Positions 1 to 15,400 of a stretch of DNA of 24,618 nucleotides are shown here, one piece after another. The position numbers and the translations under genes are program-made. A model generated the notes under the pieces. It saw only the letters and a list, made by a program, of their open reading frames with translations, was not told where the DNA came from and searched no databases. Numbering within the stretch: the first letter of the stretch is position 1; the number at the start of each line of letters is the position of its first letter. Source of the DNA: a virus (Duplodnaviria > Caudoviricetes); the IMG/VR virus record IMGVR_UViG_3300020203_000096, positions 1 to 24,618 of that record; one strand, written 5' to 3'.

Positions 1-2
1 CC

Positions 3-287
3 ACGCTACCAACCATTTTTGCCCACGTGGCCACAGCCGCAGCCGCCCTTAACTGGCAAGGGCCGGCCCTTTGCCATGCCTTGCATGGCGTGGTAAAAAT
101 GCGCGCTGAGCTTGCGCCGGGCTTGGTCCCAGCGGCACAAGCAAGGGCCATAAATGGTACACTGTATGCGCAAGCCATTGCTTTACAGCGCGCGCAAGAG
201 CAAGCGGCCGCAGTCACTGCGGCCCTAAACAGCGCTTTGCTGGCTCTGGCGCTGTTGTTGCCACAGGCCACAGACTACAGGCCATAG
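3..287 (+). CDS. Hypothetical Ala/Leu-rich protein, possibly 5'-truncated by the window edge
   Basis: Frame is open from base 3 to TAG 285-287 (ORF track starts it at GTG 27). Ala-rich, only 3 acidic residues, lies in the GA/TC-depleted island. No recognisable family. Confidence 0.35.
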   Translation, partial: TLPTIFAHVATAAAALNWQGPALCHALHGVVKMRAELAPGLVPAAQARAINGTLYAQAIALQRAQEQAAAVTAALNSALLALALLLPQATDYRP

Positions 288-316
288 GCCGTAGGCCATA
301 GGCCATAGGTTATAGG
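261..316. repeat. Degenerate 7-bp tandem array, 8 copies, consensus CCATAGG
   Basis: ccacagg ccacaga ctacagg ccatagg ccgtagg ccatagg ccatagg ttatagg, read directly. Confidence 0.9.
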
Positions 317-363
317 CCACCCCATAGGGTGGCCCTTGCCACCCCATAGGGTGGCCCTTGCCA
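316..363. repeat. 22-bp perfect tandem duplication, each unit containing a hairpin
   Basis: GCCACCCCATAGGGTGGCCCTT at 316-337 and 338-359, plus partial GCCA. Each holds the stem-loop GCCACCC-CATA-GGGTGGC. Confidence 0.92.
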
Positions 364-481
364 TGCCTTAACCCCACCCTAGGCGCGGCCGGTGGTAGAA
401 TGTTACCCCAAGGTGGTCCCGTGCCCATCGCTCTCGCCCACCTCCAAATCAAAATAGTGCAATCACAAACACTAGAATAAG

Positions 482-586
482 AATCGAGGATGAAATCGAG
501 GATGAAATCGAGGATGAAATCGAGGATGAAATCGAGGATGAAATCGAGGATGAAATCGAGGATGAAATCGAGGATGAAATCGAGGA
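482..586. repeat. Perfect 12-bp tandem array (AATCGAGGATGA), 8 full copies plus 9 bp
   Basis: Read directly. It generates the MKSR, DFIL and FHPR periodicity in the overlapping ORFs. Confidence 0.98.
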
Positions 587-2980: not shown

Positions 2981-4462
2981 ATGTCGCGGGACATTTCTTC
3001 GAAGCACCCTCAATATGTCGCAATGCTTGAAGACTGGATTCTGATGAGCGATGCTTATCGTGGTCAGCGTCAAGTCAAGTCGAAGCGAACGGCTTATCTT
3101 CCGGCGACGAGTGGGCAAATTGCCGATGGAATGACGAACACGGAACAGGTGGGATACAAGGCTTACGATTCTTATCTGCGGAGGGCTCGTTTCCCGAACT
3201 TCGTCCGTGAGGCTGTCCAGACAGCTGTCGGGATGCTCCACTCCCAGCCAGCGAAGATCATTCTGCCGAAAGGTATGGATGGAATTCGTTCGTCAAAAGG
3301 AGAAGATCTTCCTCAGTTGCTACGCCGTATCAACACTGAACAGTTGATTTCTGGTCGTATCGGTCTTCTTGCCGATCTGCCGACTTCCGGTGGGAACATT
3401 CCTTACATCGCCACCTATACGACAGAGCGTATCATCAATTGGGATGATGGAACAGTTGAGGGACTTGTTCCGCAGGTGATGAATCTCGTTGTTCTTGACG
3501 AATCCGAATACGAGCGTGGGCTGACCTCGTTCACGTGGGAGATCGATGAGAAGTATCGTGTTCTGGTCATCGGCAACATCAATCAGAACGAATCTGCTGC
3601 CGCCTATAAAGTCGGTGTTTTTCTTACCAAAGATATCGAGTTCAACCCAGATCAGTTGAGGGCTCCGTCTCTTCTCGGAAAGACCCTGGAAAAGATTCCT
3701 TTCGTTATCATCAACTCGTGTGATCTTGTGTCTGATCCCGATGAGCCGCCTCTGCTGGACCTCGGCGAACTCTGCATGACGATCTATCGTGGTGAGGCAG
3801 ACTATCGCCAGAACCTGTTCATGCAAGGTCAAGAGACGCTGGTCGTGATCGGTGGAACACAAGAAGAGGACGAGAGTCTTCGGACTGGTGCCGGTGCAAG
3901 AATCGATATCAGCAATCCTCAGGGTGATGCCAAGTTCATTGGAGTCACAGCCAATGGTCTTTCGGAACAGCGAGAAGCATTGAAAGACGATCGTGGACAC
4001 GCTGGCTCCATGGGCGCTCAATCACTTGATAGCACCAGTCGCGAACGTGAAAGTGGCAAGAGCCTCGGTATTCGTATCGCCGCTCGAACAGCCGATCTCA
4101 ATCAGGTCGCTGACACCGGAGCGAAAGGTCTTGAAACTGCGCTCAAGATTTGCGCCGAATGGATGGGCTTGAATCCAGCAGAGGTTTCTATCGAGCCCAA
4201 CAAAGAGTTTGGCAATACAGAACTGACCGGCCAGACGATGGTCGAACAGCAGACTGCCCGGAATCTCGGCTTCCCGATTTCCGCTCGCAGCCTCCACCAG
4301 ATAGCATTCGATCGTGGACTCACGAAGTTGACCTTCGAAGAGGAATTGAGTGCTATTGAAAAGGAGGAGAAGACAGTCTTGAAACGTGACCCTTCTGGTG
4401 ATCGCAATGGTGACCAAAAGAACAAGACTGGAAACCCGTCTCAAGAGAATCAAAACAACTAG
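2981..4462 (+). CDS. Portal protein (DUF4055-like)
   Basis: About 493 aa directly after terL. HPQY...W...D.Y.G, YLP, Y..YL.RARFPN and PPLLDL motifs are typical of this portal family. GGAG at 2971-2974 favours ATG 2981 over 2969. Confidence 0.9.
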   Translation: MSRDISSKHPQYVAMLEDWILMSDAYRGQRQVKSKRTAYLPATSGQIADGMTNTEQVGYKAYDSYLRRARFPNFVREAVQTAVGMLHSQPAKIILPKGMDGIRSSKGEDLPQLLRRINTEQLISGRIGLLADLPTSGGNIPYIATYTTERIINWDDGTVEGLVPQVMNLVVLDESEYERGLTSFTWEIDEKYRVLVIGNINQNESAAAYKVGVFLTKDIEFNPDQLRAPSLLGKTLEKIPFVIINSCDLVSDPDEPPLLDLGELCMTIYRGEADYRQNLFMQGQETLVVIGGTQEEDESLRTGAGARIDISNPQGDAKFIGVTANGLSEQREALKDDRGHAGSMGAQSLDSTSRERESGKSLGIRIAARTADLNQVADTGAKGLETALKICAEWMGLNPAEVSIEPNKEFGNTELTGQTMVEQQTARNLGFPISARSLHQIAFDRGLTKLTFEEELSAIEKEEKTVLKRDPSGDRNGDQKNKTGNPSQENQNN

Positions 4463-6598: not shown

Positions 6599-7117
6599 AT
6601 GGGTAAAGGACTTCCTCGATCTTTGTCTCGCGGTGACAAACGCAAACAGGAGCTCGTCAAAGAACGAATTCGTATTTCTGGCACTGTCAGCGTCTTGGCG
6701 GCGGGTGCTGGTGTCGGTTTCGGGACCCTTGTCATCGGTGATTTCCCCGAAGGCAACATTCTGTTCTTGGGCGCAGTCACCAATATCAATTTCAGTGGAA
6801 CTGGTAGCGATGCCAATCTTGTCGACGCCTGGAACGGAGATTTCGGTATCGGCACGGGACCTGATGCCAACGGAACTCTCACCGGCATAGAAGTCGATAT
6901 CATCGCTTCTGCAGCCATCGGTCCAGCCGCCGCAGAAATTGCGCCGGTTGTGAGGGCGGTCAACGCAACGCAAGCGATCTTCGACAATACCGATGGATCG
7001 CTGGAAATCAACCTCAACGTCCTCATCGATGCCGCTGATATCGCAGATGCCGCGACTGTCGTGCTTACAGTCACCGGCGAACTTCTCCTGTGCTACACTG
7101 TGCTCAGCGACGACTAA
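6599..7117 (+). CDS. Putative virion structural protein (possible head decoration)
   Basis: 172 aa, RBS GAAAGGAG, directly after the capsid gene. Basic N-terminal arm (MGKGLPRSLSR) then a beta-rich body. Function is inferred from position. Confidence 0.6.
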   Translation: MGKGLPRSLSRGDKRKQELVKERIRISGTVSVLAAGAGVGFGTLVIGDFPEGNILFLGAVTNINFSGTGSDANLVDAWNGDFGIGTGPDANGTLTGIEVDIIASAAIGPAAAEIAPVVRAVNATQAIFDNTDGSLEINLNVLIDAADIADAATVVLTVTGELLLCYTVLSDD

Positions 7118-7129
7118 GGAGAACTGACC

Positions 7130-7813
7130 ATGTCGAAAGCGAAAATTGTCGAGGCCCTTGCCGGAATGGATGCCTTGGACGACGATCAGTGGACCCAGAA
7201 TGGTGATCCGCTGGTCGACTACCTCAAGGAGAAGACTGGTATCGAAGTCCTGAGTCGTCAGGAAATCTTCGAGGCCGATCCTTCTTTCAACCGCAAGAAA
7301 CTCATGGAGGGTGGAAATGCCGAAAAAGCCGATGACGAAAAAGAAACCGATCAAAAAGTGAACGACGAGATCGATCTCGACATTGACACCTCGTCGGCCG
7401 GGACCCTTGCTGATTTCGACGAACCGCTTCCTGAGAAGGAGTTCGCGATGTTCCTTCGTGGTGTGCCCAAGGAAGACCTCGAGGAGATCGAATCACTGAT
7501 TATACAGCAGCAGACCGAAGTCACTCGCAACGTCGAACATCTGAGCGATCTTCGTAATCGGCTCAAGATGTCGCTGATGTTCGTTCAGTCACGAATCAAG
7601 ACCGAATTGCCGATGCAAACCAACGCCGAGGCGATACGTTCATACATCGATTCGCAGAACGAACAACGGGCTGAACGTTCGGCGAAACAGAAGGCTGTGA
7701 TGTCTCAGTTTGGTTCGTTGAAAGACATCAACCCTCGCTCTCAGCTGGATCAGGCTATGGTGCGGAAAACGAAACGCGGCGGCAAGCGTCCCGCTCGTGC
7801 TTTGTTGAAGTGA
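7130..7813 (+). CDS. Hypothetical head-region protein (227 aa)
   Basis: RBS TAAGGAG. Small N-terminal helical domain (EALAGMD..DDDQWTQNGDP), acidic linker, coiled coil and a very basic C-terminus (RKTKRGGKRPAR). Confidence 0.75.
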   Translation: MSKAKIVEALAGMDALDDDQWTQNGDPLVDYLKEKTGIEVLSRQEIFEADPSFNRKKLMEGGNAEKADDEKETDQKVNDEIDLDIDTSSAGTLADFDEPLPEKEFAMFLRGVPKEDLEEIESLIIQQQTEVTRNVEHLSDLRNRLKMSLMFVQSRIKTELPMQTNAEAIRSYIDSQNEQRAERSAKQKAVMSQFGSLKDINPRSQLDQAMVRKTKRGGKRPARALLK

Positions 7814-7820
7814 GGCTGTG

Positions 7821-7943
7821 ATGGCCTCACCTCCGAAACCAAGATTCGCTAGCCTGAAGAATTCGCCGCCCAAGGTGAAAGCGAAACTTCAAGCTTCGCT
7901 TTTCATCGCGAGGGAAAATCGCAAGAAGAAGCTGGGGCCGTAG
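7821..7943 (+). CDS. Small basic protein (40 aa), below the ORF-track cutoff
   Basis: MASPPKPRFASLKNSPPKVKAKLQASLFIARENRKKKLGP. GAGG at 7812-7815. Fills the gap between the flanking genes almost exactly. Confidence 0.65.
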   Translation: MASPPKPRFASLKNSPPKVKAKLQASLFIARENRKKKLGP

Positions 7944-7946
7944 AAA

Positions 7947-8843
7947 ATGACGCTCATCGTAGAAACGGGTATCGGCGTCTACGGGGCGAACGGCTACGTT
8001 CCGGTTTCTTTTGTGACCAACTACCTCACTTTGCGAAATCGTGTTACAGAGAACCTGTGGTCAACTTCTACTGTCTCAGTTCAGGAAGCTGCAATCATCG
8101 CAGCAACAGATTATCTGGAGAAGAGGTTCAGTCATAAGTTCAAAGGTCTCCCTCTGTCCTCTTTCTCGGCCACCTTTGCAGAGGGTTCTGTTTCCTTCGT
8201 TGGGCTCCCTGCCAACAATGACACTCTCACTTTGGGCGACATGATCTACACGTTTGTGACTTCTCTCTCTGGAGCACCGAACGAAGTTCTCATTGGTTTG
8301 ACGATAACCTTGACTGCGAGCAACTTCGCCGATGCCGTGATGGCTTTGCCAGCGGCGGCGGGTGTTACCTATGGCACGGCAACGGTAGCAAGCCGCCACA
8401 GCACGGCCACAGCGGCGGCGGGCGTGGTGGCACTGGTAGCACTGGCCCCCGGCGCAAGCGGTGCCTATACGGTGCTCTCCGAGGCCGCTCCGAACATCAC
8501 AATTTCGCCTTTTATTGGAGGTCTTGATGGTGGGATTCAGCCATTGTCTTGGCCTAGACAATACGTCTACGATGATCGTGGAAATACCATCGCTGGAATT
8601 CCTGAGAGAATCAAGCAAGCGACTTCTGAGTATGCCGTTCGTGTCTTGAACGGCGTCTTGCTCAGAGATCCTACTTCTGATGATTTTGGTGGACCTGTGA
8701 CTTCTCGTCGTGAGAAGGTTGGTCCTATTGAAGAAGAATATCAGTATGCCTCGAATATGACAATCTCGAGGTTTCCTGCTGCTGATCGTCTTCTATATCC
8801 CTTCTTGGTGAATGGTGGAAGAGGAGGAGTCATTCGTGACTGA
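7947..8843 (+). CDS. Head-tail adaptor (DnaT-like phage family) with an internal inserted domain
   Basis: LIVETG.G...AN.Y, AAII.ATDYLE..F..KFKG, QPLSWPR, IPERIKQAT.EYA and REKVGPIEEEY motifs. About 125 extra aa lie between FKG and QPLSWPR. Confidence 0.8.
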   Translation: MTLIVETGIGVYGANGYVPVSFVTNYLTLRNRVTENLWSTSTVSVQEAAIIAATDYLEKRFSHKFKGLPLSSFSATFAEGSVSFVGLPANNDTLTLGDMIYTFVTSLSGAPNEVLIGLTITLTASNFADAVMALPAAAGVTYGTATVASRHSTATAAAGVVALVALAPGASGAYTVLSEAAPNITISPFIGGLDGGIQPLSWPRQYVYDDRGNTIAGIPERIKQATSEYAVRVLNGVLLRDPTSDDFGGPVTSRREKVGPIEEEYQYASNMTISRFPAADRLLYPFLVNGGRGGVIRD

Positions 8844-9237
8844 TTTCTACAATGGACTTGCAGCGACTGCCATTCGGATGATTAACAAAAGAGGAAGATC
8901 GATCAGATTGATTCGCTTTGATGAGACAGCTGCAAACGCCGCTCGTCCTTGGAGAGGCCCGCCGAGCAGTCCCACTGAACCTGGATCTAATGTCTTTGGA
9001 GTCTTTGTCCCACCGATTTCCGTTCGCCAATTTGGTTTGAGCGCTCTCGGTCTTGGCACAGAGATGGAATCAATGATCGCCGTAAGCGAACAGATCATAA
9101 TCGTTTCTGCTGGAGAAATCGATCTTCGACAGTTCTCAGAAGTTTTGGATCAATCAGAAAGATGGGGAATCTTCGCCTCTCAAATTCTCAAGCCCGGGAG
9201 CACGACTCTACTCGGATTTCTTGGAGTCCGTAGATGA
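8836..9237 (+). CDS. Head closure / head-tail joining protein
   Basis: GTG 8836 follows GGAGGAG (8823-8829). FY.GLAATAIRMI.KRGRSI start and LKPG.T.LL...VRR end. Follows the adaptor. Confidence 0.7.
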   Translation: MTDFYNGLAATAIRMINKRGRSIRLIRFDETAANAARPWRGPPSSPTEPGSNVFGVFVPPISVRQFGLSALGLGTEMESMIAVSEQIIIVSAGEIDLRQFSEVLDQSERWGIFASQILKPGSTTLLGFLGVRR

Positions 9238-9653
9238 GCGTCACATTCTCAGATGCTGTCGATCAGATCATGGACCTTTTCAAGGCCGCGTGGGATACGA
9301 CCGGCTTTCCAACCTACTACGAAGATGTTCGTCAACAACGGGACTCTAGCGAGAATCCGTGGTCGACAACTACGCTCCGTCATGCTTCGGGGCAGCAGAC
9401 GACCCTCGGAACGGCGACTGGAACAAGCCGTTTTGCAAGAGAGGGATTGCTCGTTGTTCAGATATTTACCCCGGCAGGAAAAGGCTTGCAAGAAGCCTAT
9501 AATTTGGCTAAGGTTGTGGTCGACGCCTACGAGGGTTCTACAACTCCAGGGGGAGTGTGGTTCAGGAACGTGAGGTTGAATGAAGTCGGTCGGGATGGCA
9601 GGTTCTTTCAAATGAATGTCCTTGTTGAATTCCTATACGATGAACTCAAATGA
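9234..9653 (+). CDS. Tail terminator protein
   Basis: 139 aa. R.G..VVQIFTPAGKG, GVWFRNVR.NEVG and FQMNV.VEF.YD motifs. Immediately before the tube gene. Confidence 0.78.
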   Translation: MSVTFSDAVDQIMDLFKAAWDTTGFPTYYEDVRQQRDSSENPWSTTTLRHASGQQTTLGTATGTSRFAREGLLVVQIFTPAGKGLQEAYNLAKVVVDAYEGSTTPGGVWFRNVRLNEVGRDGRFFQMNVLVEFLYDELK

Positions 9654-9666
9654 TGGAGAGCCTTAA

Positions 9667-11202
9667 ATGGTGCAAGTCGCAAAGATTGACTCCAACTCCA
9701 CGGGCCTTGCTTACGCCGAGGAATCAGCCCTCGCAACGTTGAGCGTGCCTGTTTGGATTGCTCTGGAGCCGAATGGTTATGGTGATTTCGGCAGCGAAAT
9801 CACAAACGTCTCCCCGACGCCAATCACGAACACTCGTTCGCGCAAGAAAGGTGTGACAACCGATCTGGACGCGACGGCGCAGTTCAATCACAACCTTTCC
9901 CTCTGGAACCTGGAGGATATCCTTCAGGGGTTCATGTTCGCCAGTTGGGAACGCAAAGGTCGCGAAGTCGTCACGGCTGTTGACATTGATGGGGCGAACC
10001 CTGACGAGTATGAAGTCGCCAGCACGACAGGCTTCGTGGTCGGCAGCCTCATTCGTGGATTTAAGTTCACCAACGCCGCGAACAACGCTCTCAATGTCGT
10101 GACAGTGGTCACTTCATCGACTGCGGTCGAGGTTGCGACTGGCCTTCTCGTCGCGGAAGCTGCTCCTCCGGCCGGTGCCTATATTCAGGTCGTCGGCTCT
10201 CAAGGTGCCGCTGGTGACATCGATGTGGATGCGGCAGGCGATCTCGTCGCGCTGACCTCGACATCTTTGGACTTCACCACTCTTGGTCTGGTTGCTGGTC
10301 AGTGGATTTTCGTTGGTGGAGATGCGGTTGGCAATCGCTTCACGACGGCTGCGAACAATGGGTTCAAACGTGTTCGCACTATCGCAGCAACTCGCCTGAC
10401 GCTGGACAAATCCACTCTGGCGATGGTCACCGAAGCTTCTACTACGGAGACTATCCAGATCTTCTACGGCGATGTCCTTCGCAACCGTGTCGGTTCCAAT
10501 ATCGTTCGTCGCACCTATCACCTGGAACGTCTGCTCGGCGCTCCCGATGACGCGGCACTCAGCAGCATTCAGACGCAGATCATCAAAGGTTCAGTCGGCA
10601 ACGAATTCACCTTGAATGTCCCGACTGCGAATCTCGTGAACGTCGATCTCGGCTTCGTCGGCACTGATGAAGAACTCCGCGACTCGACTGCTGGCCCCCT
10701 CCAGTCGTCTGTCACGACGCCGATGCTGACTGACGTGTTCAACACCTCGTCGGATTTCAGTCGCATCAAGATCGCTCTGGTTTCCGGTATCAACGAGGCA
10801 CCGGCTTCTCTCGCTGCTTTCATCACTGAAGCGACGATCAATATCAACAACAACGTTTCGCCCAACAAGGCGGTCGGGACGCTCGGGGCTTTCGATCTTA
10901 CGGCTGGTATCTTCCAGGTCGGCGGATCGATAACGGCCTACTTCAACAATGTGAGCGCCATATCTTCTGTCCGCAACAACTCGGACATTACAGTGGATAT
11001 GGCGATGGTGAAAGACAACGGCGGGATCGTCATTGATATCCCGCTCATCTCCTTGGGCGACGGACGTTTGAACGTTTCGCCCAATGAGGCGATCAAAATC
11101 CCGCTCAACATGGAGGCAGCGGATGCGAGTGCAATCTTCAGTGGATACACTCACACCCTGATGTGGACTTGGTTTGGCTATCTGCCGGATGCCGCCGAGT
11201 AA
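9667..11202 (+). CDS. Major tail tube protein
   Basis: 511 aa, RBS GGAGAG. KIDSNSTGLAYAEE, W.ALEPN.YGDFG, RSRKKGVTTDLDA, ININNNVSPNKAVG and VGGSITAYF motifs. Precedes the chaperones and tape measure. Confidence 0.88.
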   Translation: MVQVAKIDSNSTGLAYAEESALATLSVPVWIALEPNGYGDFGSEITNVSPTPITNTRSRKKGVTTDLDATAQFNHNLSLWNLEDILQGFMFASWERKGREVVTAVDIDGANPDEYEVASTTGFVVGSLIRGFKFTNAANNALNVVTVVTSSTAVEVATGLLVAEAAPPAGAYIQVVGSQGAAGDIDVDAAGDLVALTSTSLDFTTLGLVAGQWIFVGGDAVGNRFTTAANNGFKRVRTIAATRLTLDKSTLAMVTEASTTETIQIFYGDVLRNRVGSNIVRRTYHLERLLGAPDDAALSSIQTQIIKGSVGNEFTLNVPTANLVNVDLGFVGTDEELRDSTAGPLQSSVTTPMLTDVFNTSSDFSRIKIALVSGINEAPASLAAFITEATININNNVSPNKAVGTLGAFDLTAGIFQVGGSITAYFNNVSAISSVRNNSDITVDMAMVKDNGGIVIDIPLISLGDGRLNVSPNEAIKIPLNMEAADASAIFSGYTHTLMWTWFGYLPDAAE

Positions 11203-12471: not shown

Positions 12472-15400
12472 GTGACAACTGAAATCATCAATATCGTAAT
12501 TCGTTCTGTCGGCGCTCGCGTCGTCAAGAGGGAATTAGAAAGTATTGGTGAGAGTGCCACTGGAGCCGCAAGAGGAGTGACCGGACTTCAGACTGCGATC
12601 GTTACTGTCGGTCTTGCTGCTGTAGTCGCTGTCACTGGTCTTGTCCGTATGCTGGACACTCTTACAGGTTTTGAGAACAGGCTTCGTCTTGTGACTTCGA
12701 CCAGTCGTGAATTCAACGATGTCCAAGCTGAGTTGTTTGCTATCTCTGCAAGAACCAGAAGTGACTTCGAAACTACAGCACAAATCTACACAAGAACTGC
12801 TTTGTCAGTTCGTGAACTTGGTATCAGTCAACGACAGACTTTGGCGTTCACAGAGTCTCTGAACCAAGCTGTTGTTCTTTCAGGAGCAAGTGCCAGAGAA
12901 GCAAACGCTGCTTTGATACAGCTTTCTCAAGGTATTGCATCCGATCGTCTCGGTGGAGACGAACTTCGTTCTGTTCTGGAACAACTTCCGTTTGTTGCAG
13001 ATATCATCGCAAAAGAACTTGGACTAACTCGTGGTAAATTGAGAGAACTTGGTCGAACGGGAGCCATCACTGGTAAGACCATTCTTGATGCTTTCAGGAA
13101 CGCTCGAAGAGAAATCAACGATAAATTCCTTGAGACTATTCCCACGATCAGTCAAGCGTTCAACGTTCTTCGGACGAACCTTCTGGAAGTTCTGGATGCT
13201 CTCGACGACACGACCGGTGCCAGTGGCGCTGTCGCTAATGCGATTATTGGGATAGCGAATTCTTTGCAGATCGCTCTTCCTGTTCTCGCAGCGTTCGGCA
13301 TAAGTCTCGCTGTTCGTTTTGCGTCGAGGTATATTGCAGGGATAACCGCTGCGATTGCCTCCGAAATTCGTTTCCAGATGGCTGTCCAGTCTGGCAGCGT
13401 GATTCTTAGGAATAGTGCAAGAGAAGAACAACTGAGATCGGCGGCTTTGTTGGCCTCTGCTACTGCTCAGAATACTTCGTCGGTTGCAAAGGTTCGTGAC
13501 ATACAGTTGACGGTTGCGGGTCTTCAATCAAATCTTGAGACTATCAAACTACAGAGGGCACAAGCTGCAAACTACGTTCAACTCCAGCAAGGTATCGCGC
13601 TCGCTACCGGCAGAACATCAGGATTGATCGCTGCAAGAATATCACTGAACAATTCGTCGAGAGCACTTATCGTCACTGAGAGAGCTCTTCGTGCTGTGAC
13701 TGGTGAACTGACAGCGGCACAACTTCTTCTCACGGGAAGCACGAGTGCTCTGTCTGCTGCCCAAGCGAGAGCGGCTGCTGCTACAGCGTTGACCGCGACT
13801 TTCGGCGCAACTCTTATCCGACTGATCCCAGGACTCGGTCTCGTGGTGACTGCTTTCACTCGTCTCATCACTCTCTTGGGCGGTCCTCTCAGTGCAGCTT
13901 TCATCGCGTTGTTCGTGATCTTCGCTCTGTATAAGTCGCAGAGCAAGATCATTGAAGAAGCGAACAGAGCCGTTGAGGATACTGTTTTCAGTCTAAAGTC
14001 AGCTTATGAAGAAGTTGGTGGTGTTCTAGAAGATGTCACGGAAGATCTTCTCGGGTTTACTGAGATCGAACTTCTTACTCAAATCACTGAGCAGGCAGAT
14101 CTTGCAGCAAAATCTATGCGAAGCCTCGACAAGGACATATTCGCTGTTTCTTTACTTCTCAAAAAGGAAATAGGAGAGAGTCCTATAACTGCTTTCCTTG
14201 ACGAAGCCTCAGTAAAGCTTAAAGATGGAACCTTAAATCTCGAAGAATTCAGAGATGGACTTTCCGATATCTCGGTCGGAATTGACCCAAGCGCACTAAC
14301 TGCTTTCCTTGACGAAGCCTCAGTAAAGCTTAAAGATGGAACCTTAAATCTCGAAGAATTCAGAGATGGACTTTCCGATATCTCGGTCGGAATTGACCCA
14401 AGAGCACTAACTGCTTTCCTTGACGAAGTCTTTGAAAATCTTAAAGATGGAACCTTAAATCTCGAAGAATTCAGAGATGGACTTTCCGATATCTCGGTCG
14501 GAAATGACCCAGGCGCACTTTCGCTGATAACTAACTTGATAAAGTTATCAAGAGATACTGGATCGACTGTAGAGTCTTTGAATCGTCTTCAAGACGTATT
14601 GACAGTTATCACTGGAACAGAGGCAGAAGCGTCTGCCGCTCTCGAACGTCTCGGTATCTCCGCTGGTGGAGCAGGCGATGCAATCGCTGTTGCTGTTAAA
14701 GACATAGATACATTCGAAGACGCTCTTACAGCGATAAGCAACTTCATTCCAGAATTTGAAAGAGCGGCTAAGGTTCAAGAAGATATCGCAAAAGTGACCG
14801 CCATCTACAAAGCTGGTCTTGCAATCTTGAACACCCAATTGACAGAAGGCAAGATATCACAAGTTACTTTCTCAGATGCCACGCAAACTCTCGGTCAGCG
14901 ATTGATAGCTGCAATAGCTGTGATCGATGGAACGACTGAGGCTATTGAGAAAGCCACTACTGCTTACGATTCTTATATCAACAGATCGGACCTCGACGCT
15001 GGTCTCAGTCGTCGTCAGGAATCCCTTCGCCGTGAAGAAGAAGCTCTTGCTGATGTGACTGCCGAGTTGACCAAGAATAACGCGACAGTCGATCTGTTCA
15101 CAGGGACTTCAAATGTTTACGTTGAAAGGCTGAAAGAAATCAACGATCAATTCGATCGTCTTGCAAATGAAAATCGTTTCTCGCAAACCAGTGCAGAAGT
15201 TGAAGCTACCGTCAAGGTGATGACGGATGCCTTCGCACGTCTCGGTGAGAATTTTGACAGTTTGAACGAACAGACCACTGGTCTTTCTATCTCCGATGTA
15301 TCTGCCTTGCTTGATGTTCAACTGCTTAACACCGAACAGAGGACTCAATCTCTTACAGAAATGTTGTCCGGACTTGCTGATGGTCTCCAGGAAACTGGCT

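Follow-up and report, generated by a model that had tools for sequence, protein, structure and literature searches.

The window analysed here, the whole 24,618-nt stretch of IMG/VR record IMGVR_UViG_3300020203_000096, carries inside a structural gene a 137-bp island (positions 8340-8476) that contains no GA and no TC. We conclude that this island is real and selected, that with high probability it stays unmodified, and that the odds are about even for its being a landing site of the gyrase type. The full reading that we prefer, at a probability of roughly 0.5, is that of a selected, unmodified and bendable site which would escape a bulky, TC-specific modification of thymine and be wrapped by the gyrase of the host. 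A segment that is GA/TC-free, bendable and helically phased is supported; gyrase as the wrapping enzyme is our best guess. An earlier note on this DNA had proposed a signal at the DNA level that overlies coding sequence and consists in the lack of a modifiable step. This much is supported, a sequence address is not, and from the note's list of roles a landing pad fits best, with bendability and not a motif as the positive signal, while a nick, an ejection pause and recombination gained no support.

An island without GA or TC in the adaptor gene

The window is a fragment of a siphophage structural module that runs from the terminase through the tail fibre, and genes of DNA metabolism are not in it. 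Its GTA-like tail-tip genes hint, on sequence grounds, at an alphaproteobacterial host, and seven public runs, all from microbial mats, contain at least half of the window's sampled words; one of them may be its source, and no RNA run is among those listed, which has no bearing on expression. The island and the features of its surroundings are as follows:

8340..8476, no strand given: the GA/TC-free island, 69% GC, coding for adaptor residues 132-176
7947..8843, + strand: head-tail adaptor Ad1, 298 aa (phrog_477, PF20557), with many full-length homologs among 76 matches
14186-14519: a 111-bp repeat present three times in the tape measure gene, with another copy number in relative L014

Direct counting bore out the absence of GA and TC on either strand throughout the island, against a window-wide rate of 0.17 per base, and the first description was also right about the in-frame position in the adaptor gene, the peptide, the use of AGC for all three serines and the reappearance of TC at 8476. 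Runs of this length are expected 3e-8 times in the window, and when all GA/TC-free runs were listed with the island and a GA/TC-poor cluster at the left end set aside, the longest gap elsewhere was 33 bp. The peptide lacks Asp and Glu and is rich in Ala, Gly, Thr and Val; from this peptide alone about 10 GA/TC are predicted, so that the original expectation of about 24 was too high. Given the peptide, the exact probability of zero GA/TC was 1.0e-6 when codons followed genome usage, 1.6e-5 when usage was uniform and 4.7e-6 when it was GC3-rich; the synonymous-codon shuffle proposed earlier as a check thus almost never yields zero (P ~1e-6). Among 1334 windows of 45 codons the island was the minimum (z -4.4, the mean being +1.09), and a scan of ten dinucleotide classes in the window revealed such runs for GA/TC only.

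That the peptide by itself halves the GA/TC expectation would suit an island that is a functionless by-product of a low-complexity Ala/Gly peptide, of local GC bias or of recent import, as would the erosion of the run in some relatives and its lack in many homologs. We nevertheless regard this reading as highly improbable, given probabilities between 1e-6 and 2e-5 under three codon models, the confinement of such runs to GA/TC, and the age of the domain and breadth of the trough described below.

The window as a whole is enriched in both steps, with observed/expected ratios (O/E) of 1.34 for GA and 1.38 for TC (combined 1.36). The 17 further genes that were tested contain 3676 GA/TC versus 3227±21 in synonymous shuffles and only 5 gaps of at least 25 bp versus 31±5, and at their codon junctions O/E was 1.53 for GA and 1.55 for TC. 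This excess, together with the small number of long gaps, indicates that GA/TC is kept dense and even genome-wide and that the island is a local reversal. Two further features lie at the left end of the window:

1..398, no strand given: left GA/TC-poor cluster upstream of the terminase large subunit, with free runs at 1-108, 128-198 and 274-398
482..586, + strand: 12-bp tandem repeat (8.8 copies), GA/TC-saturated, directly after the left cluster and with fewer copies in L021

The left cluster consists of repeats and the 3' part of a GA/TC-purged ORF of 115 aa (window 1-287; L021:8210-8557, starting at L021:8210) that is poor in Asp/Glu, has no Pfam match and is preceded by DNA that we judged by eye to be promoter-like. 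It had been taken for the same address repeated, which was not borne out: it looks like a purged small gene plus promoter-like DNA. Another purged small gene occupies this place in G002, G003, G004 and L033. Minus-strand small-gene cassettes, each led by a repeated unit of ~35 bp, fill L021:5900-7700, where GA/TC density declines steadily toward the left cluster, and the ORF at L021:4971-5768, ~3.8 kb 5' of the large subunit, is by eye like a terminase small subunit, with no Pfam match.

Short repeats occur in the island itself:

8350..8362, + strand: 13-mer, copy 1, in-frame Ala-Ala-Ala-Gly codons
8410-8422: 13-mer, copy 2, in-frame Ala-Ala-Ala-Gly codons, varying in L006 and L016

Both copies of this 13-mer were correctly located by the earlier note, as was the 7-mer GCCACAG at 30, 260, 267, 8395 and 8406; the 7-mer is not specific to the islands, however, being found also at 1356 and 21614. 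One or both of its island copies are gone in L006, L015, L016 and L017, and the 13-mer is absent from the island of G015, a more distant relative. These observations bear on the idea that the island is an address for packaging, nicking, ejection pausing or recombination that is read via the 7-mer or the 13-mer. Such an address would agree with the position of the left cluster just 5' of the terminase large subunit and with the presence of several islands around complete genomes, but it is quite improbable, as the motifs occur beyond islands and are lost in close relatives, the structural-module islands of relatives lie in different genes, and gaps of 15-28 kb likely exceed a terminal redundancy. 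Repeat motifs as a sequence address are not upheld, since they are not conserved and the island mutates at the pace of the whole gene.

Three other candidate signals were considered and rejected. A 20-mer common to the intergenic islands of relatives had four of its nine viral matches in long GA/TC-free runs and five outside, and bears only a loose resemblance to the minus strand of the window island. A Leu-Thr codon motif in homologs is, by reasoning, a consequence of coding without GA/TC. A central GGCC was viewed as a possible cleavage site; GGCC is common in islands, and the cleavage-core test given below was negative.

Retention of the GA/TC trough among relatives

Among the close relatives, L004, L005 and L014 have an island identical to that of the window, L006 has 15 changes and still no GA/TC, and L016 has 8 changes that include one GA/TC, its run still being counted as kept. 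The run is cut to 91 bp in L015 (16 changes, one GA/TC) and to 54 bp in L017 (14 changes, two GA/TC). The substitution rate of the island in close relatives equals that of the remaining adaptor gene, which rules out a conserved binding sequence. In the close relatives, testing for selection at single sites gave no significant result (p 0.31, 0.43). Insertions of 1.3-2.2 kb, which the window lacks, are located directly 5' of the adaptor gene at L005:722-2909 and L016:2152-3476.

We compared 23 adaptors, namely those of the window and L006 and 21 from 80 loci, leaving out the duplicate L038 and short or partial matches. In the aligned segment, nine showed a GA/TC deficit at P<0.03, L025 was borderline (0.057) and 12 showed nothing; in phiJL001, the sole cultured phage to match the adaptor full-length (40% identity), the segment gave P 0.039, yet a long run is absent. 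The island-bearing adaptors form two clades, and that of the window has lost every Asp and Glu in the segment. The adaptor of G015 (60% identity) has an uninterrupted run of ~130 bp at the same place, where those of G013 and G014 have split GA/TC-free boxes. The trough recurs in homologs of 36-60% identity, whose genomes range from 43 to 61% GC. The segment is collinear and lies in an inserted domain of Ad1 (residues ~75-195; structure model pLDDT 90.7), for which fold comparison returned a faint and weakly informative resemblance to tail-sheath proteins (E 7e-4, TM 0.25). Homologs therefore do keep a GA/TC-poor window, 9-10 of the 23 adaptors together with G013, G014 and G015, and recurrence of the trough at one position in two clades and three further genomes, in an inserted domain that is old and collinear, rules out a recent import from a biased donor.

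The purged DNA of relatives is of three kinds: small genes close to the terminase that are purged in their entirety, promoter-like stretches of higher AT content, and runs of ~110-170 bp, rich in GC, that are intergenic or lie within adaptor, tape-measure or other genes, the short GC-rich GA/TC-free runs measuring 107-146 bp. The adaptor island of the window belongs to the GC-rich kind. In the structural module the island sits in the adaptor, tape measure or scaffold gene, depending on the relative. Several islands are distributed around complete genomes, at ~15 kb in G014, at most 11 kb in G015 and with gaps of 23-28 kb in G003; strict regular spacing was not upheld across the genomes compared, and the final 16 kb of the window contains no island. 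Islands that precede DNA polymerase, lysis or ligase genes in G002, G003, G004, G011, G014 and G015 have short motifs in common, finish a little 5' of a ribosome-binding site and may be homologous elements.

Many islands of relatives finish 20-40 bp 5' of a ribosome-binding site, purging extends over entire small genes with promoter-like DNA, both in relatives and in the left cluster, and the record of phage YuA annotates late-region promoters, one of them within gp57. All of this could be expected if the island acted, unmodified, as an internal promoter or as a place where RNA polymerase loads for the tail genes downstream, its bendability serving polymerase wrapping. We consider this rather unlikely, as the island has no sigma-70-like site (2 versus 1.5 expected in 7000-10000) and no sigma-54-like site (9 versus 5.6 expected in the window), its 69% GC sets it apart from the AT-richer promoter-like islands, which are a separate class, and the capsid gene of the window has no island before it. 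Alphaproteobacterial promoters can be degenerate, so that the sigma-site scans are not decisive here.

It is also improbable that the islands are priming or origin sites of a RepB'-like primase-helicase. G002 and G011 do have a RepB primase domain, and a GTG-containing 5-mer is enriched in islands (13/18, z 5.6), RepB' being described in the available part of PMC8567376 as requiring specific sites that are long and contain a hairpin and a GTG start. However, the RNA fold of the island is no better than that of shuffles on either strand (z 0.07, 1.25), its sequence is not conserved, islands are likewise present in G005, whose primase domain is of the NrS-1 type, and in the cultured phage iggy, and enrichment of the 5-mer is partly due to coding without GA/TC or to homology between islands.

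Modification genes of the relatives and of a probable second half of the genome

The 5-hmdU DNA kinase family PF18723 was found in G001, G002, G003 and G007, that is, in four of ten records, several of which are fragments. G002 and G003 possess a dUMP hydroxymethylase-like enzyme together with the 5-hmdU kinase module, which is not in the window, and G001 additionally codes for a TET-associated glycosyltransferase. The 29.4-kb sequence G011 encodes PF18723, a thymidylate-synthase-like protein and a radical-SAM protein, bears a 136-bp island of its own, and is probably the other half of the window's phage, judging from profile, coverage and size. Its tetranucleotide profile is the nearest to the window of 22 compared; its first 6 kb were covered in 30 of 30 bins in 4 of 4 runs that contain the window, at similar depth where compared; and window plus G011 amount to 62.3 kb, which matches the size of complete relatives. 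This link is indirect because the two do not overlap, and we found no contig that overlaps the window and reaches the modification module. No Que families were detected among 20 selected G011 ORFs scanned (28 are listed); Que genes of the folE/queC/queD/queE type are present in G005. ORFs of ~427 aa with no Pfam match lie between the kinase and the thymidylate-synthase-like gene at L196:13771-15051 (G011) and L107:7321-8604 (G003), and their product is a candidate modifying transferase.

Published contexts of thymidine hypermodification are TG and TC (PMC6449724 and PMC13458397, accessible portions), and its 5-hmdU-based pathway is outlined in the accessible portion of PMC8989533. TG steps are plentiful in the island and long TG/CA-free runs are absent from the window; as TC alone is purged and TG is not, we infer a TC-specific kinase, this being the context predicted for this kinase clade. 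In the phage of the window, T is thus probably replaced by 5-hmdU and hypermodified in TC through the 5-hmdU kinase pathway. High TC density would then serve as armour, and TC-free DNA would go without the bulky mark.

Islands of the same kind occur in a phage with a mapped modification of GA:

27694-27854, 39300-39456, 42700-42870, 60074-60225 and 3179-3286 of MN029011.1 (L135/L136), no strand given: GA/TC-free islands of iggy

In iggy at least 97% of GA is modified (PMC10484667, part available). Its GA/TC-free runs reach 171, 161, 157 and 152 bp, the expected number being no more than 1e-3 for any of them, and the best that other dinucleotide steps offer are single runs at 2e-3 and 3e-3. Long GA/TC-free islands were found in none of YuA, phiJL001, which is GA/TC-rich and has a kinase homolog, and the GA-modified CAjan, which modifies GA and GGC according to the part of PMC7544227 at hand; in G007 there are weak GA/TC-poor islands only. 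GC-rich GA/TC-free runs of 143-214 bp are found in the distant 5-hmdU-kinase phages L168, L174, L180 and L189.

Helical phasing and a candidate gyrase site

For scoring we used the 130-bp motif of E. coli gyrase determined by Topo-Seq (accessible parts of PMC6379681, including supplement table DS10, and of PMC13284261), a matrix from which that of the host's gyrase may differ. It puts Mu's strong gyrase site (SGS) first in Mu, and in the window it ranks highest a site that covers most of the island:

8363..8492, no strand given: best gyrase-matrix match in the window, with position 0 of the motif at 8426 and a raw score of 10.5, rank 1

Since raw scores reward GC, we used a GC-neutral version, in which the island stands at the 96th percentile; its raw top rank owes much to GC content. 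The best raw site of G011 scores 10.1. Taken singly, the window island showed no significant phasing, whether it was compared with dinucleotide shuffles (p 0.10) or with synonymous recodings (p 0.15 for the raw and 0.64 for the GC-neutral score), with p 0.12 for the arms and 0.89 for the cleavage core, where it lacks the base preferences of a strong gyrase site. Plain GC periodicity was below p 0.05 in one of 14 islands and at 0.05 in another (window island, p 0.66).

Helical phasing emerges for the islands as a class, in statistics that include related and thus non-independent genomes. In five hold-out genomes that had not been used in forming the gyrase idea, the lowest-GA/TC windows contained 9 of the 41 top GC-neutral sites versus 1.2 expected, and the 23 GC-rich islands of these genomes exceeded dinucleotide shuffles (Fisher 5.6e-8, eight at p<0.05), phasing being maximal at periods of 9.5-10.5 bp. 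The 19 discovery islands were weaker (p 0.016), as was an earlier mixed set of 30 (0.088), and GC-rich control windows gave Fisher 0.023 (5/40), so that the dinucleotide-shuffle null is somewhat lenient. The class signal is confined to the motif arms (hold-out Fisher 2.9e-7, z 6.45; cleavage core z -0.8), and the test does not resolve a two-arm phase geometry. With protein, GC and GA/TC count all fixed by recoding, phasing exceeded that of the recoded sequences in 5 of 15 coding islands versus 1 of 12 control adaptors, that of phiJL001; the adaptor islands concerned are those of G015, the closest full homolog of the island (p 0.003), L029 and L034 (both 0.004), G013 (0.047) and L041 (0.048). 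The islands of iggy near 3.2, 26.2 and 60.2 kb rank among its top GC-neutral gyrase-matrix sites. None of the five relatives searched, three of them complete, has the type II topoisomerase subunit PF00521.

A signal in the arms alone would fit any DNA-wrapping protein; gyrase is the best candidate because of the size of the footprint, the match of the arms to the matrix and the lack of a type II topoisomerase in relatives. The mechanism that we propose begins with what was observed, namely the excess and even spread of GA/TC, a local purge beyond the needs of the protein, and its retention across clades. To this the probable hypermodification of TC described above would be added as a second step. 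Thirdly, and here we see roughly as much for as against, a host enzyme that wraps ~130 bp would be blocked on decorated DNA, so that a few GC-rich, phased and undecorated windows are kept. As the structural module is almost devoid of intergenic space, one such window would have been written into a tolerant accessory domain. Tentatively, and at somewhat less than even odds, two unrelated chemistries (on thymine in TC and on guanine in GA) may have converged on a negative code, in which undecorated phased windows of 110-170 bp, spaced 10-15 kb apart and achieved by recoding even where structural proteins are encoded, are the sole entry points of host gyrase. If so, modification both shields the genome and dictates where the host may supercoil it.

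These findings address the open question of how host enzymes operate on hypermodified phage DNA. We found no description of such islands in the literature searched, most subscription papers lying outside that search. New here are the finding that more than one clade keeps the trough at the same position of a structural gene, the hold-out phasing tests, the islands in the cultured phage iggy, and the probable modification module (G011) of the window's phage. Should the armour stop essential host machines, the phage could not do without its unmodified windows, which would also lie exposed; they would be natural targets for CRISPR and nucleases, and any recoding of such phages would have to spare them. 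The island pattern also predicts the modification context of a phage from sequence alone, and in iggy, with its islands and mapped GA modification, the idea can be tested now.

Comparison with known systems

Like the 5-hmdU hypermodifying phages M6, ViI and phiW-14, the relatives and G011 encode a thymidylate-synthase-like enzyme along with a 5-hmdU kinase. TC, the step purged here, is among the contexts reported for those phages, but TG is there preferred equally or more, and the partner enzymes found here, among them a TET-associated glycosyltransferase in G001 and a radical-SAM protein in G011, are unlike those of known 5-hmdU systems. Deliberately unmodified windows are not described for phages of this type in the available text of PMC6449724, PMC8989533 and PMC13458397, and YuA, unlike the window, has neither TS-free nor GA/TC-free islands. 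The DpdA 7-deazaguanine phages iggy and CAjan target GA, the same step as here, with a different base and enzyme; they are depleted in GA/TC overall (O/E 0.8-0.9) whereas the window is enriched (1.36), and comparable GC-rich islands free of GA/TC are present in iggy and in the Que-gene phage G005.

In Mu a single central site serves transpososome assembly (PMC10052514, part available), whereas here there are several, some of them intragenic. The islands are also unlike the Mu SGS in being defined first by the absence of GA/TC and in having no cleavage-core signal, and their gyrase role is a predicted one. Helically phased arms as in strong gyrase sites are found here only for the island class. 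The 137-bp island does agree in length and GC-richness with strong gyrase sites, which are ~130 bp and GC-rich in the available parts of PMC6379681 and PMC10052514, and it has the top raw matrix score within the 24.6-kb window, as the Mu SGS has in Mu; the phage lineage has no type II topoisomerase of its own, judging from the five relatives searched.
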